Program-made: the position numbers and the translations under genes | DNA from: an uncultured archaeon | Lineage (GTDB): Archaea; Thermoproteota; EX4484-205; JAAOZP01 | Reading direction: 5' to 3' | DNA length: 64,000 bases | Assembly: GCA_938045545.1 (NCBI GenBank) | Contig: CALIBN010000008.1 | Span: 1-64,000 of the forward strand | The notes under the pieces: model-generated | Database searches by the model: none | What the model saw: only the letters and a program-made list of their open reading frames with translations | What the model was told of the DNA's origin: nothing | Shown: piece after piece, positions 1,427 to 22,060 of the stretch | Layout: each line of letters opens with the position of its first letter | Numbering within the stretch: position 1 is the first letter of the stretch

Positions 1427-1547
1427 GCCTCAGCCAAAAACCCTAACTCTTCTGGACTGAAAAATCTTTCCTAGAAAGCTCTGGAAAAACTGGTAATTCT
1501 CTTAGGATATGTTTTTAGGCAGGTAGCCTGAGAAATATGATAGGAAT

Positions 1548-2528: not shown

Positions 2529-2624
2529 GAGGAAACTTAAGCAAGCCGTAGGAAGCTTTTGCCGATTAAGCATTCCTAATATTTGTGGTTAAAAGGCAAT
2601 CAACCATAATTTTATTCGGAAAAA

Positions 2625-3611
2625 TTGTTAAATTTAAGTGAAGATGATGAAGCATACATAGTAGACTTGGTGAGAAAGAGAAAGGAGAAACAGGTTTCCA
2701 AGTATATCGTTATGCAAGAGTTTAAAAAAGAGGATTATCTACAATTCATCAAAAATCATAGCTCTGTAGTAATCGAGGATACTCGGGTTCCCTTAAGGAA
2801 AAAATGGAGAATCAAGACTTTCACCCCTCCCGATGCTTATATTCCTGAAAGGGAAACAGTCTGGAGCTTCCCGGACAGGGGAGACTGGGCTACGCACGTC
2901 GGCGACTACAGAGGGAACTGGTCGCCCTACATTCCGAGAAACCTGATTCTGAAATACACCGAAAAGGGAGATACTGTCCTAGACCAGATGGTGGGGAGTG
3001 GAACAACGCTGGTTGAATGCAAACTATTAGGTAGAAACGCTATCGGCATAGATATAAACCCCAACGCGTTAATAGTGACTCACGACAGGCTTAACTTTCA
3101 GTATAGACCGTTAACCGGGGAATACACGGAGCCGGAGATACGGGTTTACCTGGGTGACGCCCGGAACCTGGATAAAATCCCTGATGACTCAATAGACTTG
3201 GTGGCGACCCACCCTCCTTACGCGCATATTGTTTCATACTCGAAATCACGCGTTGAAGGCGATCTTTCAGCGCTATCGTTTGAAGACTATTTAAGGGAAA
3301 TGGGCGTGGTTGCGAAGGAAGCCTACAGGGTTCTTAAGCCCGGAAAACACTGTGCCATACTGATAGGCGATACGCGGAAGCATAAGCACTACGTGCCCAT
3401 ATCCTTCAGAGTGATGCAGAAATTCTTGGAAGCAGGATTTATACTTAAGGAAGACATTATCAAGCAGCAGTGGAACACGAAGACAACGAGGGAGAAATGG
3501 AGGAAGGCGGTTTATGATTTCTACCTGATAGCACACGAGCATCTGTACGTTTTCAGGAAACCCTCGAAAAAAGAGGAGCTTAGAAAATTTAAATTGAGCA
3601 CAGCATGGTGA
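2625..3611 (+). CDS. N4/N6 amino-DNA methyltransferase, TRM11-like SAM fold (probable start 2712)
   Basis: YRGNWSPYIPRNLI, motif I DQMVGSGTT, motif IV THPPY, HEHLYVFRK. Confidence 0.85.
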   Translation: MLNLSEDDEAYIVDLVRKRKEKQVSKYIVMQEFKKEDYLQFIKNHSSVVIEDTRVPLRKKWRIKTFTPPDAYIPERETVWSFPDRGDWATHVGDYRGNWSPYIPRNLILKYTEKGDTVLDQMVGSGTTLVECKLLGRNAIGIDINPNALIVTHDRLNFQYRPLTGEYTEPEIRVYLGDARNLDKIPDDSIDLVATHPPYAHIVSYSKSRVEGDLSALSFEDYLREMGVVAKEAYRVLKPGKHCAILIGDTRKHKHYVPISFRVMQKFLEAGFILKEDIIKQQWNTKTTREKWRKAVYDFYLIAHEHLYVFRKPSKKEELRKFKLSTAW

Positions 3612-4219: not shown

Positions 4220-4700
4220 ATCTATAAAAACCAAAACCACAATCATTATATAAGCTTTTACATCCTTTCTAACCCCGTCAAATACTTTAAGAGCATGTTC
4301 TTCAACAATCTTCCTGTCCTTCTCAAGGATTACCGTGTTCGGTGACCTTTCTGCTATAAAGTACTGAGATAAAGAGGCTCACTCTTATTCATGCTCTCTA
4401 ATCATGATTCTTTTAACATCCTTATACACCATGAGGCATTGGGACAACCATGATGGAACGAGTTTAAGCGCGCCCAGATTTTATCTTTTCGAATTGTCGA
4501 TTTGACCTCAATTACTATGAGCTCATTCTTTACTGTTATGACAACTATATCTACTTTTTCGTTCATGCCATAAACTCGGCGTTCAAACAGTATATCTTTC
4601 ACTTCCTTTCCGAATATCTCGCCTTTTCCCTCCTCAACTGGATCAGAGGAGACGCTTGCAATAGCAATTTTTGAGAGTTGTAGAGAAAATTTGAGTTATT
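4220..4700 (-). pseudogene. Degraded PD-(D/E)xK nuclease-like fragment
   Basis: ILFER...KVDIVVI....LIVIEVKS motif; frame broken by stops and shifts; boundaries approximate. Confidence 0.5.
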
Positions 4701-5000: not shown

Positions 5001-5183
5001 GTGGAGAAGCTTGAGGTTAAGGATTTAACCGAGGAGGAGATTAAGATCGTGAGAGAATTTATCGATTTACTAAGGACAAGGAGGGCTAAGAAGCCAAGGG
5101 GGAGTAAGGAAATAGCCTTCAAAAGCTGGCCCTTGAAAGTTAAGGGTAGGCTTACGAGAGAAGAAATCTATGGCCACCTCTGA
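5001..5183 (+). CDS. Small VapB-type antitoxin
   Basis: 60 aa, ends LTREEIY, overlaps the start of a PIN-domain ORF. Confidence 0.65.
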   Translation: MEKLEVKDLTEEEIKIVREFIDLLRTRRAKKPRGSKEIAFKSWPLKVKGRLTREEIYGHL

Positions 5184-5307
5184 CGTTATCGCCCTTCTAG
5201 ATACTAACGTTCTGGTTTACGCTGCTGACGAGGCATCGCCTTTCCATCGAAGATCGAGAGATTTAAGAAATAGTTCAGAATCGCCTTCTCCTCGTAAACA
5301 TCGCTAG
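5170..5307 (+). pseudogene. Truncated VapC (PIN) toxin, N-terminus only
   Basis: MATSDVIALLDTNVLVYAADEASPFH; PIN DTNVL motif, stops after 45 codons. Confidence 0.7.
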
Positions 5308-6120: not shown

Positions 6121-6557
6121 AACAATTCGGATGAAAGCACAACATGGTTAAAGCTATTATTCCGAGCGGCTATGTATGCGACAACCAATTCTTTAAAATA
6201 GACATCGACAATTCGAAACTATCAGGATAGACTTCATCTTTAAAAAGTAATTTTTCCAAGCCGACTTTCTTTTTTTATTAAGTGCACACAACCCATTTTA
6301 TATCAACACAAGGTATAGCGGGCTCATAGTACAATCTGTCATATAAAATTTATTTTCAGCCTTAGAAAAGATTTACTGTAGAGAAGTATGTCTGGAAGGT
6401 CCTTGCGCGCACTAGAAACTCGCTTAAATAAACCAGAGCATTAGGCTTCTTAAACAATTTCATCCCGACCTGAATAATGGGGCCTAGTGTTTAATTTAAG
6501 TTTTTGATAGAGAAGGTTTTTAAGTTGCTTTCTCTACACTTATATGGAGGATAGTCT

Positions 6558-6914
6558 TTGGGATTTGTCAGGGTTAAAGCAAGGGTCTGGAACATTGAAT
6601 GCCCAGAGAATGCTACGGAGGTCACGCTTCTAGCTGACAGCGGCGCCATCTACACCGTCTTGCCGGAAAGCCTCCTCAAATCGATAGGTGTTAAAAGTAT
6701 TGGGAGGAGAAGATTCAGGCTGGCCAATAATCAGGTTCTTGAAAAAGACATAGGCATCGTAGGCATGGAGGTTAACGGCGTAAAGACGCATACGATAGCG
6801 GTCTTCGGTGATGAAAACGTATATCTCTTAGGGGTTGTAACACTCGAAGAGCTGGGTTTAGAAGTGGATCCGATAAGAGGTGAACTGAAACCGCTTGAGC
6901 TATTGTTAATGTGA
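6558..6914 (+). CDS. Clan AA (retropepsin-like) aspartic protease
   Basis: LADSGAIYTVLP and LLGVVTLEELGLEVDP; GGAGG RBS and upstream TATA. Confidence 0.85.
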   Translation: MGFVRVKARVWNIECPENATEVTLLADSGAIYTVLPESLLKSIGVKSIGRRRFRLANNQVLEKDIGIVGMEVNGVKTHTIAVFGDENVYLLGVVTLEELGLEVDPIRGELKPLELLLM

Positions 6915-6965
6915 ATTACCTATTAGTGCGATTATTGAGTTAATTTGAAAACTTTCCAGACTTTA

Positions 6966-7085
6966 AGAATGCATGATCCTGATGTAGTTATACTTTTATT
7001 TGCTTCCGGGAAACTTGTGTGTACTGGTGCTGTTAACGAGAAGATGATTTACGACGCCGCTGAGAAGCTTATGGCTGAGCTGATT
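6966..7085 (+). pseudogene. tbp: TBP 3' fragment, copy 1
   Basis: RMHDPDVVILLFASGKLVCTGAVNEKMIYDAAEKLMAELI matches the end of a TBP repeat; ENFP remnant just upstream (6947). Confidence 0.85.
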
Positions 7086-7117
7086 AAGTTTGTAATCCGC
7101 ATCTCTAAGCTCTTTGG

Positions 7118-7660
7118 TCAGGCTTTCTCTATGGCGTTAATTATCTCGGCATAGTCCCTTGCGCTACAATACCATCCCTCTTTGATAATCCTATCTATTA
7201 CTTGTTTTCCCTCTTGTCTCGTTAGGGCACCACGCTTTACAAGTTGTATTACCACATGAGGTGTGCTTGAGACCCTCACGCCGAGGGTTTTGGCTACATG
7301 CCTACCTCTCTTATCGTCCATGACAGCAATTCCATCGAGTTCGATGGATAAAGATATGACCGTGGCCTCGCCATAATGTATGCCAGAGTTCTTAAGCTTC
7401 TTCACAACATCTTCATTCACATGTGCCACTACTTCGATTATATGCAATTTAAATGCATTCCTCAATTCGTTAACCTCGTCGGCATGTTTCTCAACGCCCT
7501 TCTCAACTACTTCCTGATAGACTGCTCTCGTCGTAACCAGCCTGAAGGGTAGATTGGTAAGCCGCTTTATGATTCCTGCTTTTGTTAGGTATATGAGAGG
7601 CGTTGAATTGAAAACTAACGCAGTCTTTCTATCGCTTCGTCTAATTCGAATTCTGCCCAT
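7118..7660 (-). CDS. DUF3368-type PIN-domain toxin
   Basis: VFNSTPLIYL, VYQEVV..G, GEATVI.L, MDDKRGR. Confidence 0.85.
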   Translation of the reverse strand: MGRIRIRRSDRKTALVFNSTPLIYLTKAGIIKRLTNLPFRLVTTRAVYQEVVEKGVEKHADEVNELRNAFKLHIIEVVAHVNEDVVKKLKNSGIHYGEATVISLSIELDGIAVMDDKRGRHVAKTLGVRVSSTPHVVIQLVKRGALTRQEGKQVIDRIIKEGWYCSARDYAEIINAIEKA

Positions 7661-7908
7661 TCGATTCCCTCTTTCTTAACCAGGTCTATAAAGTCCCATA
7701 AAGTCATCCCCGCCATCTCAGAAGCCTTCCATAGGGAAATCCTGCCCTCCCTAAGCTTTTCGAGGGCTCTTTTCAGCCTCCACTCCCTATATCCAATATG
7801 TACCAATATCCTTAGGGCGGTTGACTTGTCCACGGATTCTTCTTTAACTACCTCCTCTACGGCACGTTCCATCTCTTTAGTAAGACGCACACCCAGTATG
7901 GATGTCAT
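7615..7908 (-). CDS. UPF0175-family antitoxin
   Basis: RHH-like N-terminus, G.ISLWKASEMAG; overlaps the PIN gene. Confidence 0.85.
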   Translation of the reverse strand: MTSILGVRLTKEMERAVEEVVKEESVDKSTALRILVHIGYREWRLKRALEKLREGRISLWKASEMAGMTLWDFIDLVKKEGIEWAEFELDEAIERLR

Positions 7909-7912
7909 TTTC

Positions 7913-7931
7913 TGTTAAACAATGTTTAACA
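7913..7931. promoter_or_regulatory. Perfect inverted repeat, candidate TA operator
   Basis: TGTTAAACA-A-TGTTTAACA between a minus-strand TATA (about 7936-7943) and the UPF0175 start. Confidence 0.6.
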
Positions 7932-8060
7932 TTCAATATAAACCTTTCTGTTGACACTCAGCTCCATGAAGGAGACAGTAGCCTCTACCATGCCCTTTGG
8001 AAACACCGATGGAATAATTGGAATCTAGCCTTTGGGGCGAGAAAAATAGAGGATTTGATT

Positions 8061-8216
8061 CTTATTTACAGAATGCATGATCCAGATGTTGTTATGTTAT
8101 TATTTGCTTCTGGGAAATTGGTTTGCACAGGCGCGGTTAATGAGAAGATGGTCTACGATGCCGCGGAGAAACTCATGAACGAGTTGATTCAGAAGGGATT
8201 GTTAATTGGATACTGA
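8061..8216 (+). pseudogene. tbp: TBP 3' fragment, copy 2
   Basis: LIYRMHDPDVVMLLFASGKLVCTGAVNEKMVYDAAEKLMNELIQKGLLIGY*. Confidence 0.88.
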
Positions 8217-8275
8217 AAAGTTTATTACAAATGGTTTTTATTCTTATCTTTCTTAATGTCGGACGGAATTCTCTT

Positions 8276-8490
8276 GATTCTGCTAATGCTTTAGTTCAGA
8301 CTTCCGACAAGGTTTACGCCATAGCAGGCATCACCATGTCCTATGGGCTGGCTATTCTGATTTTTGGCTTGTTAAGACCGATGCTTATCAAAAAACGGAC
8401 GCCACGATTTCAATTTCAGTGATGATAGTAGCAGTCGTTATAATAGTGATGGTCATAGCGGTAGTGCAAGCATTGAGGAGAATGTTTTAA
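8276..8490 (+). pseudogene. 3' fragment of a beta-propeller-repeat surface protein with TM anchor
   Basis: DSANALVQTSD..YAIAG.T.SYG (frameshift) GYSDFWLVKTD, then a hydrophobic tail and RR. Confidence 0.6.
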
Positions 8491-8740
8491 TGTTTTCGAT
8501 ACTCATGATCCCAAGTATTTTGCAATTCTAGAGAATAATACGCTGTGATAACGATTATATTATCGTCTTCTTTCCTATACACGACAATAAGAGCGTTATT
8601 ATTTGTTTTCACAATGTTTTTAGACAGATCGTGCTCAACGATAACCCTATCAGGAGACTCTATACATTTGGAAACCTTTTCAATCGGTATTTTCCTCTGC
8701 CTGATTCTTTCTAACGCATGCACCGTTAAATTATTTTCAA
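8487..8740 (-). pseudogene. DUF4258 (BrnT/RelE-like) toxin, apparently frameshifted
   Basis: TVHALERIRQR.I...VVY......IVITAY; the TTG start overlapping the upstream stop is out of frame by 1 nt. Confidence 0.65.
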
Positions 8741-8955
8741 GGCTTAGCTACAATCTCTATGCCCTTCACAAGGATTTCTCCAATATCCATTTTCGACTTG
8801 GAGAAATTAATCACCTCGATACCAAGTACCTCACCGTTCTGATCGAAGTCAACAATTACATTATCCCTGATTTCGAGACTATCCGCTATATCGCCATTTC
8901 TAACCCTGATATACAGCGCATCAGCCAAAGAATCGTATTTCACCCTATACTCCAT
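8737..8955 (-). CDS. DUF2283 antitoxin-like protein
   Basis: YDSLADALYI...VIVDFD.NG.VLGIEVIN.SK. Confidence 0.88.
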   Translation of the reverse strand: MEYRVKYDSLADALYIRVRNGDIADSLEIRDNVIVDFDQNGEVLGIEVINFSKSKMDIGEILVKGIEIVAKP

Positions 8956-9122
8956 TACTATCTAAAACATTTATTTCGACAGATTTAAAGATTCCCATTT
9001 TAAAAACATCCCAGCTAAACTACTCGCTCAGGCTAACTTCTAAGATTTTTTCGGATTCTTTTCAAGGACGGATCCTAAAGTTTAAGAAAGTGAAGAAAGG
9101 CTTAAACAGGATGGTTGCGGTT

Positions 9123-9495
9123 TAAGGTTTTCTGAGGAAGCCAATAAGGGTCTGTCACACATAATACTCTGTTAGAAGGCCCGCAACATCGCTCCGACAG
9201 GTTCGAGGGCCAGGAGACAATAGTTGAGAAGATGCTGAGGGAGATAAGGAAGTTCGGGGAATCAATCTGCTGATAGACCAGAGGCTCCTCGCAGTATCTA
9301 GGAAATACTAGGGCTCTGCGCCACGATAACCTGCCTGAGGCTACAATATGCGAGCGACGCGGGGAAGGTTGCTGACACCATGCACCTAAACGAGGAGCAG
9401 ACGTTAAAGCTCAGGAGCTCAAGCAGGGGGAAGCAATAGCATTACTCCCGAGAATGAGTATGGCAATACCGATTATAGTGCAGATATAATCCCTT
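9123..9495 (+). pseudogene. Degraded C-terminal fragment of a HerA/VirB4-like ATPase
   Basis: Across frameshifts: ETIVEKMLREIRKFGES..IDQR, CLRLQYASD..KVADTMHLNEEQ, LKQGEAI. Confidence 0.6.
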
Positions 9496-9500
9496 ATTCT

Positions 9501-9656
9501 GGCCTAATATATAGAATGCATGATCCTGATGTAATTATACTTTTATTTGCTTCCGGGAAACTTGTGTGTACTGGTGCTGTTAACGAGAAGATGGTTTACG
9601 ACGCTGCCGAGAAGCTTATGCAAGAGTTGATTCAGAAAGGATTGTTAATTAGATAG
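9501..9656 (+). pseudogene. tbp: TBP 3' fragment, copy 3
   Basis: GLIYRMHDPDVIILLFASGKLVCTGAVNEKMVYDAAEKLMQELIQKGLLIR*; not in the ORF track. Confidence 0.88.
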
Positions 9657-9748
9657 CGAATGATACCTAATCCATATTGGTTCTTCACTTGTCCAGCGTT
9701 AAGGAGCTGTTTTTCAATAGAGTTGGTTAAGAAGAGCGCGCTAGATTT

Positions 9749-9942
9749 CTAAGAGGGCTTTTTAGGGCTTGTCAACAACAATAGTATAATAATGAAGAAA
9801 GCGATGATAACGAAACCGATTATCGGGAATTGCAAGGGTGCATGTCATAGAGTATGGCTAGGTATAGAGCGAGTAGAAGAAACAGGAAGGTGAAAAACGA
9901 AACGATCGTAGCTGTTATTATGGTTTTATGCTCATCTTTCAA
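9749..9942 (-). pseudogene. Small two-TM membrane protein with a 1-nt frameshift
   Basis: MKDEHKTIITATIVSFFTFLFLLLALYLAILYD / LQFPIIGFVIIAFFIIILLLLTSPKKPS*; 194 nt. Confidence 0.4.
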
Positions 9943-10036
9943 CGAGAACAAGCTGGTTCCGTCAGCACACGCATTTGAGCGGTGCGCGCTTAACAGGCAC
10001 TACCTTCTTCCCCTGGTCTAGCTCTTTCTGACGATG

Positions 10037-10076
10037 GTAGTAACCTTTATTAGGTAGTACCAAAATATTAGTAGTA
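10037..10076 (+). promoter_or_regulatory. Three GTAGTA direct repeats at 17-bp spacing, candidate AbrB operator
   Basis: Copies at 10037, 10054 and 10071 around the TATA-like ctttatta upstream of the antitoxin. Confidence 0.5.
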
Positions 10077-10082
10077 CTAAGA

Positions 10083-10313
10083 ATGGAACACGAGGTCGTG
10101 GTTACCAGGAAGGGGCAGACGACCATTCCAGCGGAGCTAAGGAGGAAATACAATATCGTTGAAGGCACAAGGATGGTGGTAATGGATACGGAACAAGGAA
10201 TCCTCTTTAAACCCGCTCAGAACACCTTGGGTCTTGCAGGCTCAGGCTCCAAACGTGCGACGCCGAGGGAGATGAAAAGGTTGCTTGACAGGCTCAGGGA
10301 GGAGGATCTTTGA
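10083..10313 (+). CDS. AbrB/MazE/SpoVT antitoxin (VapB)
   Basis: VTRKGQTTIPAELRRKYNI.EG. Confidence 0.9.
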   Translation: MEHEVVVTRKGQTTIPAELRRKYNIVEGTRMVVMDTEQGILFKPAQNTLGLAGSGSKRATPREMKRLLDRLREEDL

Positions 10314-10690
10314 GCGTTTACGACACAAGGTTCTTCATTGAGCACTACTATTCTGGCGATGATGAAATCCTGAAAAGGACAACCAGCATGCTAAGGACAG
10401 ATAGGAACAGGATTATTTCTACAATAGTTGTCCACGAGGTCTTCAGGTTGACGCTGGAAAAAGAGGGGAGGGTGTTGGCCGAACTGAGGACAAGGCTTCT
10501 AGAAAAGGATTTCAAAGTGGTGGGCGTTGATGTGCAAACAGCCAAAGCTTCCGCCGAGCTCAGACATAAGTACAGGGTGCCGATGGCGGACAGCATTATA
10601 GCGGCGACAGCTAAGGTTTTAAATTTAACGTGCATAACTGACGATAAACATTTGACGCAGATGGACGAGATAAAGACGAAATGGATTTGA
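10310..10690 (+). CDS. VapC PIN-domain toxin
   Basis: YDTRF, VVHEV, MADSIIAATA, ITDDKH; 4-nt overlap with the antitoxin. Confidence 0.9.
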   Translation: MSVYDTRFFIEHYYSGDDEILKRTTSMLRTDRNRIISTIVVHEVFRLTLEKEGRVLAELRTRLLEKDFKVVGVDVQTAKASAELRHKYRVPMADSIIAATAKVLNLTCITDDKHLTQMDEIKTKWI

Positions 10691-11199
10691 CGAGTTCTGT
10701 TATTAGGCTGTTCGCCATCAGCAAACATTAATATTATTAACCCAGTGAGCACAGACCTTTATTTTTTCAGAAAGCTGTTTACCCTCGGATAGAATTCAGA
10801 AGGGTTTGCCGTTCGGATGATTTTTATGCTAATTTCTTTACCATAAAAAAGCTCGTTACAAGCATTAGAACAGAGGATAATGTTTAAGCCATGTTAAGGT
10901 TGATTTTAGAGGGTCTCGTTTGGCAAGATTGTCCATCTTAAAAATTAGTTTGATTTTTCTACTTCTTTTTTTTCTGCAGCGCCTCCTCGTAATGTTCCTC
11001 TTTTAACTTGATAAAAATTTACACCGACCATTAACGCCGATAAGCCTCACGGTTTACTGCGAAGCAGGCACAACAGGATACTGCAACATAACTATACAAG
11101 TGCTGCTCCAGGCGAACCATGGATCATCAAACTTAACGGAACAGACTGGACTTCAGCAAGGGGAAAATGACACGGTGCGCCCATCGGTTTACTTAAAGC

Positions 11200-11355
11200 C
11201 AGAAGGGTTGAGAAGCCGAGAGAGTGAGAGAATAGCATTCGAAAGCTGGCCTTTAAAAGTCAAGAGTAGGCTTACGAGAGAGGAAATCTATGACTATCTC
11301 TAACACTATCGCTCCCTTGGACACTAACGTTCTGGTTAACGCATGCTATGATTAA
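11200..11355 (+). pseudogene. Second remnant of the antitoxin/VapC junction seen at 5001-5307
   Basis: IAFESWPLKVKSRLTREEIYDYL* overlapping MTISNTIAPLDTNVLVNACYD* (11290-11355). Confidence 0.7.
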
Positions 11356-11826
11356 CGCTTTTAACCGTAGGAGGATACCTCATGAACCTGAATCGATTTC
11401 CATATGGTGAATATTGTCTTTTCCGGTGCTTATCGCTCCGAATCCTGTGTCTTCGACGACTTTACTCATAAACCGGTGTTTCAGAACTACTTGAGCATCG
11501 GCTAAAGGTTCTCCATTACATGTAACTCTATGAAAGATGTAATCCATGGAGGCAACTATGTACGAGATCGCCCGGATTCGCTTATTCTTCTCCTCATGAG
11601 TGTTGTCGAGCGTGCGCGATTCGATTTGCCAGTGAAGCCTACCAGTGCTTAAGTAAATCTCTTAACCGTTACGGGTTCGTTTTAAAGGTTGGCGAAATAA
11701 CGCGCGCTAAAGGGCGTCTAAATCTTTCAGATTCGAAACTGAAGCTGGAATTCTGAAGCTGTTCGTTTTACGACACTATCGCAAAGCGTGGGCTTAAACT
11801 TTCTTCTACCGTGTTTCAGTTTCAAC

Positions 11827-12282
11827 TTAAGCGTCTTGCTGCTGTAATGTTTCTGTTTTCCTAAGCCTTACCTGCAGTATTCCGTTGGCATACTTCTCGT
11901 CTTGCAGTTCTACGCCTTTCGGCACCTGTATTCTTTTCAGAAAGTTTCCCCCTCCCCGTACTTCTAGCATGCCCCTGACGATTTTTACTTTCACCTCTTG
12001 CGCGGGACCTGGCACCTTCGCTACGAAGGTTATGTTTTCCTCCTCCTCAATAAGGTCGTAGAACCATTCGGGCTCCTCTAAGGCGGGGGCTTTCTCTTGG
12101 AAAATTCTCTTGACCTCCATCAACCAGTATATTAGAACCAGGGCCGCAACAGTTCCTATGATAACCCCCAGTATTCCTGCCTTCAGCTTAAAGAGCACTA
12201 TTAAGAGTATGATTACAACGGCTACTCCTACCATCAGCAGGTTTCCCAGAGTCTCATCCTTCTTCTCCCCCTCCCGCCTCAT
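11827..12282 (-). CDS. Hsp20/alpha-crystallin domain protein with N-terminal TM helices
   Basis: Two TM helices, then YDLIE....FVAKVPG...YANGILQVRLRK. Confidence 0.8.
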   Translation of the reverse strand: MRREGEKKDETLGNLLMVGVAVVIILLIVLFKLKAGILGVIIGTVAALVLIYWLMEVKRIFQEKAPALEEPEWFYDLIEEEENITFVAKVPGPAQEVKVKIVRGMLEVRGGGNFLKRIQVPKGVELQDEKYANGILQVRLRKTETLQQQDA

Positions 12283-12292
12283 GAGTCACACC

Positions 12293-15103
12293 CTAGGTGA
12301 GCTCAACCGTTATGTAATGGAGTTCAACCACTTCTTCGACGCGCACCAGAATCCCGATGCTCACCTTCTCCTCTACCTTCCATACTAATACTCTTTTAAC
12401 TTGATGAGCATCACATAGCTCTAGGAGCTTGGTGAGAAACGGCTGGACACTCACCCAGTCCTCATCAGAAATGTATCTAGTGTTCCCGTAATGGAAGGAA
12501 ACATCAGGGTTGACAGCTGTTGGCACAAGCACTGTTAAGCCTTCTTCTTCGAACACCTCCATTAGTCTAGCGATCCTTTCCTCCACACTCTTTTCAGGTG
12601 CTGGCGGAGGAGTTTCAACTCCGGCGACCTTGGCTAGGAATGCCCTGAAGCTTTCCACAACCGTGGAGCCTAAACCCACGTAGTATTCGCCGGTGAAGTC
12701 AGCCCCCACAGTCGCGATGGTTCCAAGCTGGGTGACAACACCACCTCCAGGCGCTGTGTAAACCGGTATGAAGAACACGTCGAAACCGCCAATCCTATAG
12801 AATATCTGGTTCCCCACGCGGGGGTTTCGCAGAAGGGTTTTCAACGTTGCATAATCCGGGTTTCTGTCCAACGCTTCGTTTATTGCAGTGGGGCCTAAAA
12901 GCTTGCTCTCCGCCTCAAGAGGCACCTTGAAGAAAAACATCTCGCCGGTGTGCGGATGGTCGTTTTTAACCACCATGTATCCGGCAAGATTTTCCCCTAA
13001 TGCTCCACGTAGCTCGAGCGACAGTATTCCTACAAACTCCAATTCTTTGAAGCCGTGGGGCTGGGCAATGATGTAATAAGTGTCGAGACCACTAGGCACG
13101 ATGTAGAACTCCTTGGCCGCGATGAAGGTCGAGGGGTCGGTGACATGGTAAAAGTTATACATGGAGATCCTCCATTCGAAGAGCTCCTCAGGATACCTGA
13201 TCTGGGTCTTTAACCATTCAGGTACGCCCGTGGAAACGTATTCGCTGTAAACCGTTTTAAAGAGTTGGCTGAAGTAATCTTCACCGGTAATTATCAGCTG
13301 AATATCCCCATGGTAAATGTTTATCAAAGCGTATCCAACGAGCCTCCCCAAGTAGTTTCCACGGCTCCACGGCACTTTTCCAGCGTCGAAAAACGCTATG
13401 AGGGGCATTATCCAGAAGGTTTGTTTACCATCGGTTACTGGCCATATGTCTATGCGTCGCCCTCCGATTTCATACGTGAAGTAGGGGAAGAGCAGCTGCA
13501 TGCGGTCGAAAACATCCCTGTACCTGAGAACCCGCATAGTAGTCGTAGGATAGGAAAGGAGGAAGTTTGGCTCGAAGACCCAGCTTAGAGGTGGAGAAAT
13601 ATCTACTCCGCCGTTGCCATCGTAGAAGTAGCCACCTACTTCGTCGCTCACTGTTCTCCCAACAGGGTATGCGATCCATGTCTCCCGAAAGAGCCCACCC
13701 TCCCCGTAGTAGATTCTCCTCTGGGGGAAAAACTTAGCGGCGTCAACAATTCTTCCAGTGTGAGCGTCAAGCATGAGGAAGCCGTTTGGTACATGCGTGT
13801 ATACGAAATGGATGGCGTACCATCGGTCTTCCTGCCTAACGGTTTGAGGCAGAATGAGGTCCATTGAAGCACTCCAGTAGAGCGTTCTGTTGAAACGAAG
13901 AATATCCGCGTCTGCGAAATCTATATAGGGTATTAGACCTATCTCCGGCCTTAGTTTGTCAAACGAGCCCTGCTGGTCCCAAAGGCGTACTTTTTCCAGT
14001 AGCTCTCCGTATTTCTTAACATAGTCGTCGATCTGGCTTGGAGGAATAGATGATAAACCGAACTCATACGGCACTTCCACTATCTTGTCCAGTTCTGCGA
14101 GATGCCTGTTTACAGAAATGGTTTGAGAGATATATGGGCCAAGCATCTCCAGCTTCCTCACGTTTGCAATAGTGTTGTTAAAAAACATCATGGAGCCGAC
14201 GGCTAAGCCTATTACGAGTAGAACGCCTAGGCGGAGGTATAGATGCCGGCCTTGTGAAGCAGGGTGCACCGCCACCTCTCTTCTCTTATCTAGGAGGGCA
14301 AAGATGGCTAAAGCAACACTGGTGGCGGCAAACCCCAAAATCTGGTACTTCGTATTATAATCGATGAAGGGGGTGAAGAAGCTGGTGAACATAAGCCATG
14401 AAACGAAGACCGCGGCCAAGCCCTGTATGGTCGGCGCAAACCTTCTCGGGTCCGGCATGCCTAAGCCGAAGATGTAGAATGCGAAGAGAGGCACGAATAA
14501 GCGGATAATGTGAGTCGCCGCAACAAGTATCAAGCGTATCCAGAGGGAGCGGAGTAATGGTGGAGCCAGAAGAGTCAATATCGGGATTAAGGGCATGATT
14601 TTTTCCTCGGCGTAAGCCATGTTCATGGGTGGAGTAGAGAAGGGGAGACCAAATATCCTGGGGAATGCTTCAACATGCGGGTTCCAACCCATTATGATAG
14701 CGTTTAAAGCCATGCCGAGCGTCACGTTTGCGAAGAAGACCGTTCCGACTAGGACTTTCGTAACCTGCCACACAAGAAACTTGAAGGGCCGCATTTTGAA
14801 ACTTTCGAAGTCAGGCAATATTGGGGGAGCAGTTTCACCGATGCTTAACGAACGGGCTAGCTTAAGTTTGCGCACGCTATTAATAAACCACCATGTTATG
14901 GATCTTCTGTTTTTAAAGTCTACTCTAAATAGGGCTAAGGCGGCAAGAACAAGCCCACCCAGAAGGCTGAAGAATAATGGTTTGAAGAACATGTCTCCGA
15001 ATTCTGAGAGATTAAGCCAGAAAACCACGATTTCGCGGCTGAGGAAAACAATGGAAACTGAAACAACCACTAGCATTATGAACAGCTGGTACGTGAAACG
15101 CAT
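12293..15103 (-). CDS. UPF0182-family membrane protein
   Basis: Multi-TM N-terminus; VRLWD, HFVYTH, RIYYGE, QIRYPEELF, YHVTDP..F. Confidence 0.85.
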   Translation of the reverse strand: MRFTYQLFIMLVVVSVSIVFLSREIVVFWLNLSEFGDMFFKPLFFSLLGGLVLAALALFRVDFKNRRSITWWFINSVRKLKLARSLSIGETAPPILPDFESFKMRPFKFLVWQVTKVLVGTVFFANVTLGMALNAIIMGWNPHVEAFPRIFGLPFSTPPMNMAYAEEKIMPLIPILTLLAPPLLRSLWIRLILVAATHIIRLFVPLFAFYIFGLGMPDPRRFAPTIQGLAAVFVSWLMFTSFFTPFIDYNTKYQILGFAATSVALAIFALLDKRREVAVHPASQGRHLYLRLGVLLVIGLAVGSMMFFNNTIANVRKLEMLGPYISQTISVNRHLAELDKIVEVPYEFGLSSIPPSQIDDYVKKYGELLEKVRLWDQQGSFDKLRPEIGLIPYIDFADADILRFNRTLYWSASMDLILPQTVRQEDRWYAIHFVYTHVPNGFLMLDAHTGRIVDAAKFFPQRRIYYGEGGLFRETWIAYPVGRTVSDEVGGYFYDGNGGVDISPPLSWVFEPNFLLSYPTTTMRVLRYRDVFDRMQLLFPYFTYEIGGRRIDIWPVTDGKQTFWIMPLIAFFDAGKVPWSRGNYLGRLVGYALINIYHGDIQLIITGEDYFSQLFKTVYSEYVSTGVPEWLKTQIRYPEELFEWRISMYNFYHVTDPSTFIAAKEFYIVPSGLDTYYIIAQPHGFKELEFVGILSLELRGALGENLAGYMVVKNDHPHTGEMFFFKVPLEAESKLLGPTAINEALDRNPDYATLKTLLRNPRVGNQIFYRIGGFDVFFIPVYTAPGGGVVTQLGTIATVGADFTGEYYVGLGSTVVESFRAFLAKVAGVETPPPAPEKSVEERIARLMEVFEEEGLTVLVPTAVNPDVSFHYGNTRYISDEDWVSVQPFLTKLLELCDAHQVKRVLVWKVEEKVSIGILVRVEEVVELHYITVELT

Positions 15104-15223
15104 TTAACGCGTGTAAGTGGATGTCATCGTATTTAAGCTTTGCACGGATGCTGTTATAATAGTCGGTTCTCATCAAATGCGTGAGGAAGTGGGGTACCGT
15201 TTTGAGAAGAAGGTTAAACCTTT

Positions 15224-15424
15224 TCAGCACACTAGCGGCGCTAAACAAAACGGTTGAAGAAACAGCTTGTTTATGAGAGCAAACAGGCAAGCTATGAGTA
15301 TGGGGCGACGAGTATGTTCAGAGCTCCTACGTCGCGACCTCTTGTGCTTCTTTTTCTTCTTCAGCTCCTCCAGTTTACTTTTCGCAATCCTATGTCTGAT
15401 ATACCAATGAGGAGCATCACTCAT
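15224..15424 (-). CDS. Small highly basic hypothetical protein
   Basis: LKKKKKHKRSRRR; GGAG upstream of the ATG. Confidence 0.35.
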   Translation of the reverse strand: MSDAPHWYIRHRIAKSKLEELKKKKKHKRSRRRSSEHTRRPILIACLFALINKLFLQPFCLAPLVC

Positions 15425-15694
15425 ATATAATCACTCTCCTTTAATACATTGACCTTGGTTTATCCCTAAGGACCTCACATTGGATTCGAAATGCAAAGTT
15501 TCTCTCGGCTTTAAAATCTTTCATCTTCCAATCCTCCTTATTGAAATTCAACTACAGCGTGCGCTCCTCCCTGCTCAATCCTACGAAACCTCCTTAAAAT
15601 GATCTCTATCATCCTCAGTTTCTCCTAGACGTTCATTCAGAAAGGCTTGCTAATAAGATAGTAGGATGTACGACGCTTGAGTGAACATGCGATG

Positions 15695-16102
15695 CTAAGG
15701 AATCTGAATTAATTTGGCCTGCACTATTTTAGGCTCTACGAGTCGGGAATCTGTCGTGATTAGGATTCCTCCCAGCATCTTTGTAGCCGCTAGGATATAG
15801 GCATCTACTAGAGAAAACCTGTCCCTATGAATACACTTTAAGCTTCCTGCGACACGTGTAAGCCGTTCATCCAAAGGCAATATTGAGATTCTGGAGTGTC
15901 TGATGGATGCACTCCTAACTTCGGCAGCCTCTCGACCAAGCTTCTCGCAGGTTTTATAGTAAAGTTCCGCGATGTTGACCTCACATGTATAACCCTCTGC
16001 CTTACCTGCTATAACTTCATCGAAAAAACCTTTAACACGATTATCCTCAGCAAAATAGAGAAGAAGCGGACCTGTATCAAAGATAAGCTTATCCTTTCTC
16101 AG
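15695..16102 (-). CDS. VapC PIN toxin, intact, probable CTG start
   Basis: Frame open from CTG 16102: RKDKLIFDTGPLL...NIAELYY...SLVDAYILAA...ITTD; GAGGAG upstream; overlaps the antitoxin end. Confidence 0.8.
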   Translation of the reverse strand: MRKDKLIFDTGPLLLYFAEDNRVKGFFDEVIAGKAEGYTCEVNIAELYYKTCEKLGREAAEVRSASIRHSRISILPLDERLTRVAGSLKCIHRDRFSLVDAYILAATKMLGGILITTDSRLVEPKIVQAKLIQIP

Positions 16103-16328
16103 ATGCTTCTCTCCTCCTCTCCTCTTGCAGCTCTTTTATCATTTGATACGTTATCTTCTTAAAGTTCTTATCCGCGCCGAAAAGATCCTCTAATGGGATA
16201 ACTGGGACAAGCAAGATTCCCTCATCGGTCTCTATGAACTTAACCCGTGAGCCCTTTTTCAGCTTGTACTTTTTTCTGATCTCTGCTGGAATTGTTACCG
16301 TACCTTTCTCGGTTATAGTATAACTCAA
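16089..16328 (-). CDS. AbrB/MazE/SpoVT antitoxin
   Basis: ITEKGTVTIPAEIRKKYKLKKG. Confidence 0.9.
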   Translation of the reverse strand: MSYTITEKGTVTIPAEIRKKYKLKKGSRVKFIETDEGILLVPVIPLEDLFGADKNFKKITYQMIKELQEERRREASEKG

Positions 16329-16498
16329 GTCTTTTTCACCATACTTATACTCTTAAAGTATCCCTATTTAACCTTTATGCATACATATGCTTTCTAATCT
16401 CCAACTCGCCGGGTTTCCAGATTTTTAGCAAGGCTGAATCGCCTTAATCTTGAGATCTGCTTACTTTCTTCTAAAGGCGTTTGCAAAAAGGATTCCAG

Positions 16499-16636
16499 CT
16501 CATATACCGTATGCAGGATCCAGAGGTTGTTATCCTACTTTTCACCGGTGCAAATTGGTGTGTACCGATGCGGTTAACAAGAAGATGATTTACGGGCCGC
16601 GCAAAACTGATGAACGAGTTAAAACAGAAAGGATTA
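16499..16636 (+). pseudogene. tbp: TBP 3' fragment, copy 4 (degraded)
   Basis: LIYRMQDPEVVILLF / KLVCTDAVNKKMIY / KLMNELKQKGL across two frameshifts. Confidence 0.8.
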
Positions 16637-16659
16637 CGATCAGATGAAGCTAATCTGGT

Positions 16660-16995
16660 TTAATCAGCTCTAGAAATTCGGTTTGGTGAGAGAATTTTAA
16701 TACTTTTGAATCTGCCCAGTGCTAGGAGATGTTTATTTCCTGTGATAATCGCATTGGCCTTCGCATAAAGGGCACAATCTAGGACTATATTGTATGCTGG
16801 ATCGTTGCGAATAATGTTGTCTAATGTCCTAGGTTCAATAGTTCTCAATATTATCCGGTAAAATCCAACGGCGCTGCTATCTAGTCTTCAGAAGGCTTGA
16901 ACTTAGGATGGTTCATAACCTTTTCAAATTCCTGTATTAATTGGAGTGAGATACAGCCGGTAACAATGCCATTTTCAACTAGTTCAACGATTTTA
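16660..16995 (-). pseudogene. PIN_3 (TIGR00305-type) toxin pseudogene
   Basis: IQEFEKVM.HPKF, internal stop, then DPAYNIVLDCAL...ANAIITGNKHLLAL. Confidence 0.7.
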
Positions 16996-17124
16996 GACAC
17001 GCGCGGTTGACACTCTAGGTTAAAGTTCCATTTTTACCCGTGACACGCTGTTGTGTTTTACAGACTTCAGCATATCCTTATAAGACATCTCGGCAAAGCT
17101 TAAATTGATTTTCGTTGATAACCA

Positions 17125-17763
17125 TTGTCAATGTTCAAGAAGAAGACCTTTCTTCTATTAATGGCTTTGCTTTTAGTTATAGTTATTACGGGTGGTGGAG
17201 TTTATTACTGGTTTGCGATGAGACCTGAGCCTTTACCCATCGTTAGGGGCGCGAAGGTCTTAGTCTTGATTGCCGACCGTTATAACCATGTGGAATACAG
17301 CTACGTGGTGGATGCTCTTGTGAGACAAGGGGCCGAGGTTACGGTAGCCTCGTTCGAAGTCAAAACCGTCACTTCCTATGACGGAGGCACTGTAAATTCT
17401 CAGGTGACATTCGAAGATGTGAAAGTGGACGAGTTTCACGCCATCTATATCCCCGGAGGCTATGCCCCTGAGGATTTAGCCAAAAGCGAGCTCGTGTTAA
17501 ACATCGTCCGTGGAGCTAGAACTAAGGGGCTCGTAATAGCGGCTATATGTCACGGCCCCTTGGTCCTAGCCAAGGCGGACGTCATTAAGGGCGTCAGAGT
17601 AACGGGTTACTCCGCCATTTTAAACGATTTGAAAGAGGCTGGCGGGATGGTTGTGAACGACCCGTCCGTCAGGGCTGGTTTGATAATAACGGGCGTAGAT
17701 CCTAAAGCCTTACCGTCGTTTACAAAGCTTTTCTTAGAAGCCCTAGAAGAGAGGATTAAATAA
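17125..17763 (+). CDS. DJ-1/PfpI-family protein with N-terminal membrane anchor
   Basis: YNHVEY, IPGGYAP, AAICHGP. Confidence 0.88.
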   Translation: MSMFKKKTFLLLMALLLVIVITGGGVYYWFAMRPEPLPIVRGAKVLVLIADRYNHVEYSYVVDALVRQGAEVTVASFEVKTVTSYDGGTVNSQVTFEDVKVDEFHAIYIPGGYAPEDLAKSELVLNIVRGARTKGLVIAAICHGPLVLAKADVIKGVRVTGYSAILNDLKEAGGMVVNDPSVRAGLIITGVDPKALPSFTKLFLEALEERIK

Positions 17764-18389
17764 AAACAGGAAGCCAAATCTTCCCTGGCGCATGCTAGCT
17801 CAAATCCACCTCCTACATCGCCTTTTTAGGCTAGAAATGATGTAGTTGGGGATTAAAATTAAGAAATAGTAAATTTGGGTTACATACAGTCCTTATAGAA
17901 AGGATGAGATATTTTCTATACTTTCGGACTGGAACTTTTGGGGGAAAAGGGTTTGATGTCGGACATGAAGGGGCATTTTACTTGGACAGGATTTTAAGCT
18001 TTTTTGAAGGTGTTGAAAAGGTAGTTTCGGTTTATGAGGTAAGGAGGAGCGAGAAAAGCTTTTTGCTAGCGCGCTACAACTTCCTGCTTTCATGAGGTAG
18101 TCGTTGAAAACAGAGTTAGCATGAAATTCTTCGAGTATCTTATGCAGCATTATATCGTTTTCTATTAGGTTGATGCTCTTGATTCAGATTTCTCAGCGCG
18201 CTTTATGGGTACTCTATCAGTTGGATTAAGAGGGTAAATCTTCATAGTAAGAATAGCTCCGAACCCTCGCATCAACCCCGGCCTCAACCGTCTCCTCTAG
18301 CGTGTGCCATCTTGTTTTCACATAAATACACATAGCATGCAACCCTCTTACACAACACTTATAAGTTTCCACATGCTTCCCATAGAGTC

Positions 18390-21300
18390 TTGACTGTAAC
18401 GGTTAGGGCATTGTTGCTTCTAACACTATTCTCGTTAATGCTCGTCTCCGCCACGCCTGTCTTCGCCTCCCCAGGGATCAAGCCTGATGCTCTTCCAGCC
18501 GGGCTGGTTGGCAAGTTCTACCAGGTTATTCTAAGATGGGAGGGACACCAGCAGCCTCCCCCGATCACCTGGTTCCTAGTGTCCGGCAGTCTTCCGCCCG
18601 GGCTCCGCCTGGAAACGCTTGCAGACGGTTCCGGCTACATATATGGGACGCCGACTCAAGGAGGGACATACGAGTTCAGAGTCAGGGCTCAACAGCCGTT
18701 CGGCTTGATAGCGATAATCAAGGAGGAGAAGGATTACACTGTTTCGATAGCTGGCCTAGGGATTCACCCCGAGTCTCTCCCCGAAGCCACTGAGGAGACA
18801 GGTTACGATGCTAAAATCAACGTGGTCGGCGGAACACCCCCGTATGACTGGGGCATAACCGGGTTGCCTCCAGGCTTACGATGGAGTTATCTTGACTTAA
18901 GAGACAAAGAGGTGGTGGCGATACACGGTTCCCCGGAAGCCGGCTCCGCTGGAAACTACTCGGTCACTGTGACTGTCCGCGACAATAAGGGCAATGTAAT
19001 TTCAAGAACATACGTTCTAACGGTTAAGGAGCCCCCCTGGGATTACAGCGTCACGATAACTCGTCTAACCTCTGAAGGAGAGTCTTCCCGCGCCACAGTG
19101 TATATAGATGAGCTGATAATAGCGCCGGGAACCCTGCCTGTAGACTTCTCCACCGGAAAGCCCTATTTAGCTGAAGATGTTTTCGAAGTCAGGCTCCACC
19201 GTACCTCGGGAAGAGGAGACAAGCATGTTGAGCTTTTCCTCTCCATTCCGGAAACAACTCCACCTGGAGTAACCGTGGAGATGGAGTCTCCCTGGAGGGG
19301 AGAGTTCGGCGGCATGGATCTTGTGAGAAGAATATCCGTAAAGGTTGACAAGAGATACCTGTCGCTTCACGAGAGTTTCACCACAAAGGATGTGCCGAGA
19401 AACCTTGTTGTTAAAGTCGCAGGGGTGAGGAACGAGACTCACCCGCTCACAGTGACCATTAAAGGCCTTAAGATAGATGTTTACTTCGGGTACCCGAAGC
19501 CCTGGCAGGCTGAGCCGATCCAGGTGGTGGAGAGCTACGACGTGAAAGAAAGCCTTGTTGAGCGTAAATCCACTGTTTTCAAGACCCAGGTGTGGGTAGT
19601 GTGCAGCAGGACCCCGCGAGTGGACGTCAGCTTCAAGGTGGCGCTGGAACTGCCTTTTGAAGACTGGGATTGGGACATTCCGGACTGGAGTTCAGGAACT
19701 AATGGGCTCTCCTATGTTACAGTAAGCATTCCTAGGGCCGAGATCGTTCTGCCTTCAGGCGCCTCCTGGACAACCCCGGTTTCCCGCACCATCTATATTC
19801 CCAAAGTACACTCTCAAGCAGTGTTTGAATACTTCTACATTTCGTTCCCATTGTCCATGCCGCGGCCCAGGCTCACGCCAAGCCGAACCGTCAGGTATAA
19901 GCTTTATGTGGATGCTGGAGCAGACATATCTGAGTGGAACGAGAATAACAATCTGTACGAAGGAACATGGCCGGTTGTCCGGACCCGCCGGCTCCACCTG
20001 CTTTTCGTACCATGGGTTAACGATGACGAGGAGCTTCACGCAGCAATAGGGCTTTTCCCAAATGTCCCCCCATATGCACCCTATCGATTGGGTGACTATT
20101 TCTACAATGGGAGCGGCCTCTGGGGAGAATGGACGCCGAATGTCTGCGTTAAGTTCCCCGTCAGCACGTCAGATTTCACAAACATCACTGAGGCCTACAG
20201 GATTAAAGCCAGGGCTCTAGCGGAATACGTGCAGGCCACTTACCCTATAGCGGAGTTGGAGCTAACATATTCCGTGAGGCCCGTCTGGATTGACTTGGAG
20301 GCGCCAGGCCTGCCCATAATAATATTGAAAAACAGGGATCACGGGAGGGTTCTGAGGGAGGTCGCTAGACTGGCTAGGATATATGGCTACGATGCCGGCG
20401 TGGCGATGAGGATATGCGGCTCAGGAGGACAGTCGCGGGGAGTCAAATGGGCGGTTTTCACAGATGTTTTCGCGCCAGTGACTACGCTTGCGCATGAGCT
20501 GTACCATCTTTTAGGCCCAATGAATTACGATGATTATGATCAGCATCCTGCGGACGCTGGGTACTGGGTTAACAAGGGTCAGGTAAGGGGGCAGGGGGAA
20601 AGCTACTTCATGGCGGGGTTCGGGCTCACGGCTCCCAGCACTCTTCTAGGGGGAACTAATGATGCTGAACGTTCATGGCCTCCCTACTTCGAATGGGCTT
20701 GGGAGAGCAGCCACTGGATTACGTTACAGATGTATAAAAGACTGATGGAGGGATGGTTCAACCCTGAAAACTCTAGGGATCCGCTCGCCATCCTGGTGGG
20801 CGGGGCGGTTTTCAAGAATGGTTCAGCCTTCTTCGAGCCGTTTCTGGTTCAGGAGGCTGAGATAGACCTGCTGCCGGGTTCAGCCGGAGACCACTATATA
20901 GTTTTTCTTGATAAGGAGGGCATGGTGTTGAAACGGTTCGGCTTCAACGCCAGTTTCCTGGTTTTCGACAGTCCCTTGGAGAATCAGGTGGACGAGTCTT
21001 ATTTCAACTACTATCTGGAGGCTGTCGACGGCATCCGAGCAATCGAGTTAACAGACTCGAGTGGGAGAACACTGGCTCGCAGAGAAGTATCTGAGAACCC
21101 TCCGACCCTGCGTCTAAAGTTCCCCTTGGGCGGAGAAAGGCTGACAAACCTGCGGAGCAGTAAGACTTGGATAAGCTGGGAGGCAAGCGATCCAGACGGG
21201 GACACGCTGTACTACTATGTGGCTATCAGCCCGGACAACGGTACAACATGGCTTCCCCTGGAGGTTGACTACACGGATACGAGCCTCGGGTTCGGCGCAT

Positions 21301-21755: not shown

Positions 21756-22060
21756 CGCACGTTAGGTTGAAGCCTAGTGAGGAGGTTTCTCCCGGTGTTC
21801 ATTTGCTGCTCCTCGCTGTCGCAGGCCCAAAGCCATCAGCATCCTCCAGCACATACTCGCCAGCTATTCTGAAGCTTCTTCTATGAGATGCTTTTTAAAA
21901 CAATAATGCGCGTGCGGAAAACATTATGATGCGCAGCGCAAATATTACAGTTTCCGTAACGTGAACTTAGCAAGATAAAAAGACAGAATTATACGCTCAG
22001 CGATAATCTCTGCACACGCTTGTGATGATCCCGGTTAAACCGGCCCATGTTATAATTTGC

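Follow-up and report, generated by a model that had tools for sequence, protein, structure and literature searches.

Repeated tbp 3′ ends form the joints of a variable gene island in a hot-spring genus of Bathyarchaeia

Why should an archaeal chromosome carry, in a row and on one strand, several copies of the tail of an essential gene, separated by cargo of changing kind? The question is raised by the first 64,000 nucleotides (nt) of contig CALIBN010000008.1 (GenBank assembly GCA_938045545.1), a stretch hereafter called the window, in which four copies of the 3′ end of tbp, the gene for the TATA-binding protein (TBP), stand among toxin–antitoxin (TA) genes. Comparison with related genomes and with metagenomes answers it in part: the copies are joints of a variable island that, in a hot-spring genus of Bathyarchaeia, is attached to the 3′ end of tbp, a single and essential gene. 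Genomes are coded G, G000 being that of the window (G000:C8:1-64000), loci L, and metagenome runs X; run data are contigs or unitigs, not reads. Gene positions are those of the ‘parent’, the sole full tbp in G000 (C12:7531-8106, minus strand, 191 amino acids (aa)), whose stop codon occupies nt 574–576.

When the parent 3′ end was searched with blastn against the entire G000 assembly, four matches were found in the window, all on the plus strand: 6966–7088 (89.4% identity over 123 nt, E = 5e-41), 8061–8207 (87.1% over 147 nt, E = 6e-46), 9501–9655 (89.0% over 155 nt, E = 5e-53) and 16499–16636 (73.8% over 141 nt, E = 5e-15). A repeat finder and the Pfam TBP model agreed on these copies. Their left edges (nt 433, 424, 421 and 424, in window order) correspond to G141 to R145 of the FPGLIYRM segment, and their right ends differ (Table 1); the frame of copy 2 runs one codon past the position of the parent stop (..LLIGY, then stop). 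A first-pass annotation of the window, made from its letters, had described plus-strand tbp 3′ ends at 6966, 8061, 9501 and 16499 that begin within a few codons of FPGLIYRM, with copies 2 and 3 reaching a stop, copy 4 ending near it and copy 1 clipped earlier, and had seen no full tbp in the window; all of this holds, the only full gene lying on C12.

The position of the array relative to the gene emerges from its relatives. In G002, tbp is followed by 4.6 kilobases (kb) of other sequence and then by 12.6 kb collinear with window 23674–36232 (82% identity, same strand). Because collinearity resumes at 23674, everything from the tbp stop to window 23673 is a variable insert between tbp and a convergent backbone gene, and in G000 this insert comes to no less than 7.5 kb (C12) and 23.7 kb (C8) together. 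The stretch in G002 has no tbp fragment and is not empty. In G004:C40, tbp and a fragment 6.2 kb downstream of it lie on one contig and one strand, so that the upstream, same-strand parent which the first-pass annotation had proposed to look for is seen directly in that genome and, in G000, by synteny with G002. The genes adjoining tbp vary between genomes. The island sits at a fixed site between conserved genes, with content that differs among relatives.

Each block of the island, 0.9–7 kb in length and carrying TA pairs, restriction–modification, Dnd-like or other defence genes, follows a copy of tbp nt ~421–576 oriented as tbp is. Comparison of 300 nt on each side of the copies revealed approximately 30 pairs sharing the left flank only, approximately 30 sharing the right flank only, and 2 sharing both (comparisons between two full genes, whose left flank is the common tbp body, were set aside). 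The cargo downstream of the full gene in G004:C11 stands behind a fragment in G011:C67 (98.7% identity), and a Dnd-like block, 99.8% identical over 6.1 kb, has the full gene as its left neighbour in G004:C40 and the end of a different block in metagenome contig L158. Window 6968–8212, which spans copy 1, cassette A and copy 2, recurs in G010:C56 (87%). G006:C21 matches window 6407–7073, 9513–10722 and 15650–23686 in one run (91–98%, with cassette C plus copy 3 at 91% and the distal variable region, 17125–23666, at 95–97%), and therefore has neither of the cassettes between copies 1 and 3 nor the block 10722–15650; the distal region is itself missing between tbp and putative carA in G002. Contigs of run X4, from an independent hot-spring study, link position 7078 with 9633 and position 8089 with 9570, all four points lying inside tbp copies, and one X4 contig skips window 12006–15303. 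Blocks are thus present, absent or reordered among related species and in an independent metagenome, and the switches of context fall inside the tbp copies. In run X1, the probable source run, the unitig over 8165–9564 (cassette B) has a depth of 14 against ~31 for its neighbours; part of that population may be without cassette B, contig depth being unreliable and no bridging contig being listed.

The left edges of the copies are tightly placed. Among 52 fragments from 28 sources, 47 start at parent nt 419–439 (29 of these at 419–424), five start later, and none extends left of nt 419 by blastn, although at the protein level four copies retain a faint resemblance for a few more codons on that side. 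Scattered left boundaries and a lack of variable cargo had been named in the first-pass annotation as signs that would speak against a tbp-anchored system; what was found is a span of 21 nt for 47/52 edges, and flanks that re-assort at the copies.

Exchange extends to the live tbp, whose 3′ end is swapped as well. The G004 metagenome-assembled genome (MAG; all genomes used here are MAGs) has three tbp contigs that are 97.6–98.4% identical upstream, only 88–92% identical over nt 421–573, and followed by different islands. In all 15 pairs of six complete tbp genes from the genus, nt 421–564 was never more alike than nt 100–420, with a mean gap of 4.7 points; in other Bathyarchaeia, 91 pairs of comparable 5′ identity gave a mean 5′–3′ gap of 1.1 points, a contrast that is only indicative because gene pairs are not independent. 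Between in-frame fragments and the parent, the proportion of synonymous differences (pS) was 0.4–0.86 and that of non-synonymous differences (pN) 0.025–0.12, giving pN/pS of about 0.05–0.15, and approximately one third of copies carry stops or frameshifts. Low pN, high pS and this broken third together indicate that the copies diverged as live gene ends and decayed after displacement. Parent nt 449–504 exists in two synonymous versions (..GTTATAyTnTTATTTGCTTCTGG.. and ..GTGATTCTTCTnTTyGCnAGTGG..; examples are window 8089–8144 and 9529–9584), the first being found in all 11 full or contig-truncated genes and the second in many displaced fragments.

How widespread is the arrangement? At E ≤ 1e-5, tbp fragments were detected in 11/16 congeners; one more gave a weak match only, and in the same search G001, G005, G008 and G014 had no fragment. 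Same-strand arrays reached seven copies in G003:C26, four in G010:C56, four in G006:C21 and three in G011:C67, and the 25 spacings between neighbouring copies ranged from 884 to 7370 nt (10/25 below 1.5 kb). Outside the genus, 4/24 genomes had isolated short matches and none had an array. Elsewhere in Bathyarchaeia, ~78 tbp loci taken with as much as 10 kb of flank had no separate fragment, the extra matches being to the internal repeat of tbp. Few of 80 metagenome loci retrieved, chief among them L158 and L159, had a fragment apart from the full gene, and a scan of viral contigs with the 51-aa tbp end gave a single weak match at 52%, which offered no lead.

Two further loci bear tbp ends in other settings. 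G000 has a fifth, shorter fragment at C16:16414-16514 (L152; 79%, parent nt 480–572), directly 3′ of the stop of the ribosomal protein L2 gene and followed by ~2 kb of unrelated open reading frames (ORFs); homology with congeners at this locus ends with the L2 gene, and only G006 reaches the start of the fragment, its contig ending there. At L134:9688-10749 (G007:C8), a 353-aa ORF begins inside a tbp fragment (MHDTDVVILLFASGKLVC..) and continues into an HPr-kinase-like domain, whose match is below the cut-off; it is a possible fusion made at the joint.

Where within the repeat does exchange occur? In pairs sharing one flank, a likelihood change point was fitted to the series of mismatches and the alignments were read; a cruder rule (3 mismatches in 12 nt) was discarded as too noisy. 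On sequences 75–90% alike, intervals are wide for many pairs, in which the crossover cannot be placed. Narrow intervals were obtained for change points at nt 430, 453, 456 and 477 in left-sharing pairs and at nt 501 in a right-sharing pair, with wider intervals for those at nt 498, 519 and 528. One right-sharing pair remains near-identical leftward to ~nt 431, other right-sharing pairs break at about nt 498–507, and in the most recent event, the Dnd-like block of G004:C40 and L158, identity extends from the cargo into the repeat and stops at ~nt 490. Overall, the mapped crossovers span about nt 408–530, and breakpoints lie at the edges of the two best-conserved tracts (~nt 431–448 and 505–533), as homology-dependent exchange would be expected to leave them.

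A linked recombinase was sought by several routes. In the 11 genomes searched with the tyrosine recombinase family PF00589 (G000 and ten more), no fragment-bearing contig gave a match; those in G000 lie on C23, C11, C12 (113 kb from tbp), C13 and C46. G003, G004 and G016, which are 91–94% complete, had no PF00589 match at E ≤ 1, and so not even an XerA-like one, and all control archaea score. PF00239, searched in six genomes (G000, G003, G004, G006, G010 and G016), gave only a pseudogene in G016 above the cut-off and nothing on fragment-bearing contigs. The 144 array ORFs yielded 47 Pfam families, the first 25 of which include no recombinase; none adjoins tbp, and inspection of five close metagenome loci, without Pfam, showed no integrase-like large ORF (ORFs of at least 110 aa). 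In the first-pass annotation, too, no recombinase had been visible. Nor was hairpin folding apparent in six folds of three copies on both strands (z from −1.57 to +1.56).

On balance, the probable reading of these data is of a tbp-anchored integration hot spot, seeded by Campbell-type insertion and now shuffled by homology-dependent recombination. A circular DNA bearing a tbp 3′ end would enter by a single crossover, leaving tbp whole and displacing its former end downstream; in an essential gene, only insertions that keep tbp whole would survive. Such circles might arise in a donor array when two of its repeats recombine and the DNA between them pops out. Most of the gain, loss and exchange of blocks today would then proceed by homology-dependent recombination between repeats, with crossovers in the best-conserved tracts, and the agent could be host homologous recombination or an integrase with that activity, so that a recombinase resident in the array would not be needed. 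The abundance of TA pairs would be accounted for because such pairs should penalise the loss of a block by repeat–repeat deletion. For the exchange now under way, homologous recombination is favoured by the scatter of the crossovers and by the missing resident recombinase. The first-pass annotation had offered tbp either as the attB site of a mobile element family, with the window holding a decayed tandem array, or as a recombination anchor for cassettes; the shared left edge, variable cargo and upstream parent that go with both are borne out, neither a single crossover core nor a linked integrase was found, and for present-day dynamics the evidence leans to the anchor.

Several observations sit uneasily with this reading. 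The link between C12 and C8 in G000 is made through synteny only, the contig ends sharing no overlap. No circular form was observed in the contigs of the runs. There is no array beside tbp in G002 or in G008, whose contig ends 1.1 kb past the gene, yet the tbp 3′ ends differ there too. Failure to find an integrase is weak evidence, because integrase-bearing mobile elements often stay unbinned in MAGs. At least seven unrelated left-flank families meet tbp homology within ~15 nt, an edge tidier than random events would produce; either the copies descend from a mere handful of founders, or a site-specific step is indicated. Moreover, several left-sharing pairs change over at ~nt 449–456, just past the best-conserved tract ATGCATGATCCnGATGT: in two of them the interval is narrow (nt 453 and 456), and for the pair L036_10734 / L041_5958, whose interval is wide, the change was placed at ~nt 449 by eye only. 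This shared change point could be a core site, and, together with the tidy left edge across unrelated flanks, the two narrow change points keep a site-specific founder step in play.

Site-specific integration throughout, which we regard as rather unlikely, would invoke an integrase, tyrosine or of an unrecognised kind, acting in trans from an unbinned virus or plasmid on a core at ~nt 421–450. The cassettes would be integrase-less satellites carrying that core and a replacement tbp end, and breakpoints in mid-repeat would be the work of later gene conversion. The clustered left edges and change points just described suit this explanation, as does the right-sharing pair that is near-identical almost to the left edge, and the design mirrors icd with e14 inserted and icdC as the pseudogene (PMC13626634). 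Right-end families such as ‘delta’ and ‘alpha’ are conserved over 190–350 nt, which would be expected of attP arms. On the other side, inspection by eye revealed no motif shared among the differing left flanks, the most recent event crossed at ~nt 490, away from the left core, and other right-sharing pairs break at about nt 498–507. The absence of PF00589 and PF00239 from fragment-bearing contigs, and of any tyrosine recombinase from three nearly complete genomes, also tells against it. It is very doubtful that the array arose locally, by tandem duplication of the tbp end with its downstream DNA followed by unequal crossing-over, insertion and decay, with the copies as pseudogene debris. A hard left limit at nt 419–421 with a tail of shorter copies would fit a founder plus nibbling, and a third of the copies are indeed broken, but identical or near-identical blocks stand in differing contexts in different species, near-saturated synonymous change with a conserved protein is not expected from decay in place, and the working gene has had its own end exchanged. 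The Dnd-like block of G004:C40 and L158 already suggests a transfer between lineages whose backbone genes are much less alike than the block.

Nearly all copies keep an ATG at parent nt 436–438 and an open frame to the stop, and they show 90–98% amino-acid against 75–89% nucleotide identity, so that functional fragments might be imagined, acting either as a DNA signal or through an encoded peptide (46 residues, from Met146 of TBP onward) that disturbs transcription. With about one third of copies broken, and with conservation accounted for by their time as live gene ends, such a role appears most improbable. Contigs do often break at tbp copies (G004 C11, C40 and C44; G006; unitigs of run X1), as they would if strains had been chimerically joined at a conserved gene during assembly or binning. 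We give this practically no credence, since up to seven diverged copies lie within single contigs, and the pattern recurs, with differing sequences, across 12 or more genomes as well as independent metagenome contigs; the assembly chimeras that the first-pass annotation had warned of are not what these copies are.

The opposite end of the gene offers a mirror case. A displaced tbp 5′ end lies on the strand of tbp at C12:11160-11219 (gene nt 27–88, 93%), 3 kb upstream of the present gene and with its own ATG (MQAEAEKPIVEI..); it has the ancestral type of N-terminus, the present gene having a different one. Between the two, at C12:8107-11233 (L151), are, judged by translation, two putative VapBC-like ORF pairs and a putative riboflavin kinase. 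This fits a homology-driven Campbell insertion filtered by the need for a whole tbp. More tentatively, the system may be seen as a recombinase-free counterpart of the integron, in which the last 150 nt of an essential gene serve as a universal homology tag protected by selection. Any circle bearing the tag could then enter by host homologous recombination with the cell unharmed, pop-out between tags would free transferable cassettes, and TA pairs would guard the array from collapse. Synonymous recoding of the tags would set the rate of recombination between neighbours, and the displaced 5′ end with its TA cargo would represent the same process at the gene's opposite end.

The features of the window are collected in Table 1. 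All of the TA cargo named in the first-pass annotation (UPF0175/DUF3368, DUF2283/DUF4258, AbrB/VapC and PIN_3) was recovered by Pfam. Among 144 mechanically derived ORFs from 11 arrays, Pfam detected PIN (7), MazE (7), UPF0175 (4), DUF3368 (4), ParE (4), RelB-like (3), DUF2283 (3), DUF4258 (2), PIN_3 (2) and HicA (1). Known RNA or tRNA genes were rejected as insertion targets: no tRNA was found in window 1–30000, and Rfam gave zero matches at E ≤ 1 in window 1–25000.

Table 1. Features of the window from its left end to the first conserved backbone gene
Feature	Position	Strand	Remarks
Island cargo remnant, upstream end of ~400-aa gene family	1-250	-	Window 3-208 matches L036, L047 and L043 at homologous gene starts
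DpnII-like restriction endonuclease	251-1426	-	Pfam
D12 Dam-type methylase	1548-2528	+	Pfam
N6_N4 methylase	2625-3611	+	Pfam; with the endonuclease, DpnII-like restriction–modification cargo 251-3611
TA remnant: short antitoxin-like ORF and truncated PIN N-terminus	5001-5307	+	Repeat family D3; Pfam null for 5001-5183
Retropepsin-like aspartyl protease gene	6558-6914	+	Left flank of copy 1; 98% flank precedes tbp fragment in G006
tbp 3′-end copy 1	6966-7088	+	Parent nt 433-555; homology gone ~20 nt short of stop
Cassette A: DUF3368 PIN-like toxin (7118-7660) and UPF0175 antitoxin (7615-7908)	7118-7908	-	Pfam
tbp 3′-end copy 2	8061-8216	+	Parent nt 424-570; open frame, 98% amino-acid identity
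Cassette B: DUF4258 (8487-8723) and DUF2283 (8737-8955)	8487-8955	-	Pfam
Frameshifted 3′-end remnant of HerA/DUF87 ATPase gene	9141-9490	+	Right end of cassette B
tbp 3′-end copy 3	9501-9656	+	Parent nt 421-575; stops at the parent's stop codon
Cassette C: MazE/AbrB antitoxin (10083-10313) and PIN (VapC-like) toxin (10310-10690)	10083-10690	+	Pfam
Block missing from otherwise collinear G006 array	10722-15650		Comparison with G006; Pfam
TA remnant	11100-11342		Inside block 10722-15650
Hsp20-like membrane protein	11827-12282	-	Pfam
UPF0182 membrane protein	12293-15103	-	Pfam
PIN remnant	15695-15880	-	ORF list/Pfam
MazE/AbrB antitoxin	16089-16328	-	Pfam
tbp 3′-end copy 4	16499-16636	+	Parent nt 424-564; internal frameshift and stop; most decayed, farthest from tbp
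PIN_3 toxin gene split in two ORFs	16660-17000	-	PIN_3 remnant 16660-16848 by Pfam
DJ-1/PfpI	17125-17763		Pfam; distal variable region
Ig-domain surface protein, 1121 aa	18390-21755		Distal variable region
482-aa gene	22061-23509		Distal variable region
First conserved backbone gene, putative carA	23667-24788	-	Judged from translation; collinearity with G002 begins at window 23674

Some cargo recurs in ways of its own. A 121-nt direct repeat (81%) joins window 5102–5222 and 11222–11342, each running from the last part of an antitoxin-like ORF into the first part of a truncated PIN gene; on this likeness the two TA remnants, 6.1 kb apart, can be taken to be of common origin. The HerA/DUF87 3′ end constitutes the ‘alpha’ left flank, the commonest of all, which stands before at least seven tbp fragments in five genomes; the conserved 350 nt 5′ of copy 3 had been considered as a non-coding or guide-RNA-like element and proved to be this frameshifted gene end. 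Paralogues of the ATPase, whole and broken, occur in G000 at C24:22772-24967, C24:12718-14690 and C4:776-2247, where they adjoin ORFs that by eye resemble TnpB of the insertion sequence family IS200/605. The ~400-aa family, found in 9/17 genomes, includes L131:6158-7372, L149:5533-6717 and L047:7718-8938, with remnants at window 1–250 and 4319–4467 and at C12:1150-1245; it recurs in tbp islands, away from tbp, and as the end of ORFs of ~2350–2450 aa. Its C-terminal part is weakly PD-(D/E)XK- or Cas4-like, and as a candidate nuclease or recombinase it counts as a lead only, there being no Pfam family and the Cas4/PD-(D/E)XK signals being weak (E = 7e-4; TM-score of structure comparison 0.24–0.53).

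Is anything similar known? Phage 21 plays a role like that of e14 at icd of Escherichia coli. In the case of e14, the element supplies a mostly synonymous replacement 3′ end, the old end is left as the icdC fragment, and excision makes a chimeric gene (PMC13626634). The tbp island resembles this in that the gene entered at its 3′ end is an essential or central one, in the whole target lying upstream with displaced ends downstream on the same strand, and in an element-borne end that keeps the protein intact, as pS and pN testify. It differs in having up to seven ends in a row, blocks down to 0.9 kb, no integrase or phage genes, crossovers spread over ~100 nt, an archaeal host, and tbp as the target. 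Integrated elements of Thaumarchaeota lie in 3′-distal regions of protein genes in 14/68 cases and can pile up at one site, although they carry integrases or casposases and have generally short att sites (PMC6563490); tbp is not among the targets in the passages covered, and ‘TATA’ has 0 occurrences in the main text, supplementary Table S2 being outside this scope. Tycheposon-fed islands of Prochlorococcus likewise occupy fixed sites, newcomers push older elements inward, and partial target copies mark old insertions, but the targets are tRNA genes, and 937 integrase-carrying elements were found there, compared with none here (bioRxiv 10.1101/2020.12.28.424599).

The breakpoints fall inside a flanking core gene (the tbp 3′ end, on the tbp side examined), as in replacement genomic islands; the repeat, ~150 nt long and diverged, is not what fill-in would give at the ~15 bp target-site duplication of a casposon or transposon. 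Sedentary chromosomal integrons also build long arrays of small, TA-rich cassettes at a single locus, re-assorted between relatives. The tbp arrays, unlike these, have no IntI gene, their repeat is a fragment of a coding gene without hairpin potential, cargo lies on both strands, and, compared with the short cassettes of integrons, 10/25 spacings are 0.9–1.5 kb and the others up to 7.4 kb. One known archaeal enzyme is relevant to the agent of exchange: Int-pTN3 of Thermococcus nautili, an integrase whose activity resembles homologous recombination, recombines any identical segments from 104 bp upward (reviewed in PMC8371274). By analogy, an activity of this type could give scattered crossovers in a 150-nt repeat, although no such gene was found near the arrays and the repeats are only 75–90% alike. 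A full-text literature search on tbp as an integration target, with subscription journals and supplements outside its scope, returned nothing relevant. What is new here is the target, tbp, the archaeal class, an integron-like density of TA genes without a linked recombinase, and the spread of crossovers over the repeat.

These arrays show how an uncultured archaeal lineage builds and trades its sets of defence and TA genes at one fixed site, and the gene-end repeats provide a simple sequence mark from which the history of one insertion after another can be read in such islands. They also call for caution: assemblies tend to break at tbp on account of the repeats, and a phylogenetic marker gene is left with a mosaic 3′ end. 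If it is true that no dedicated recombinase is involved, cassette platforms could be built from ordinary homologous recombination and selection on an essential gene, and the search for such platforms would widen beyond screens centred on integrases.

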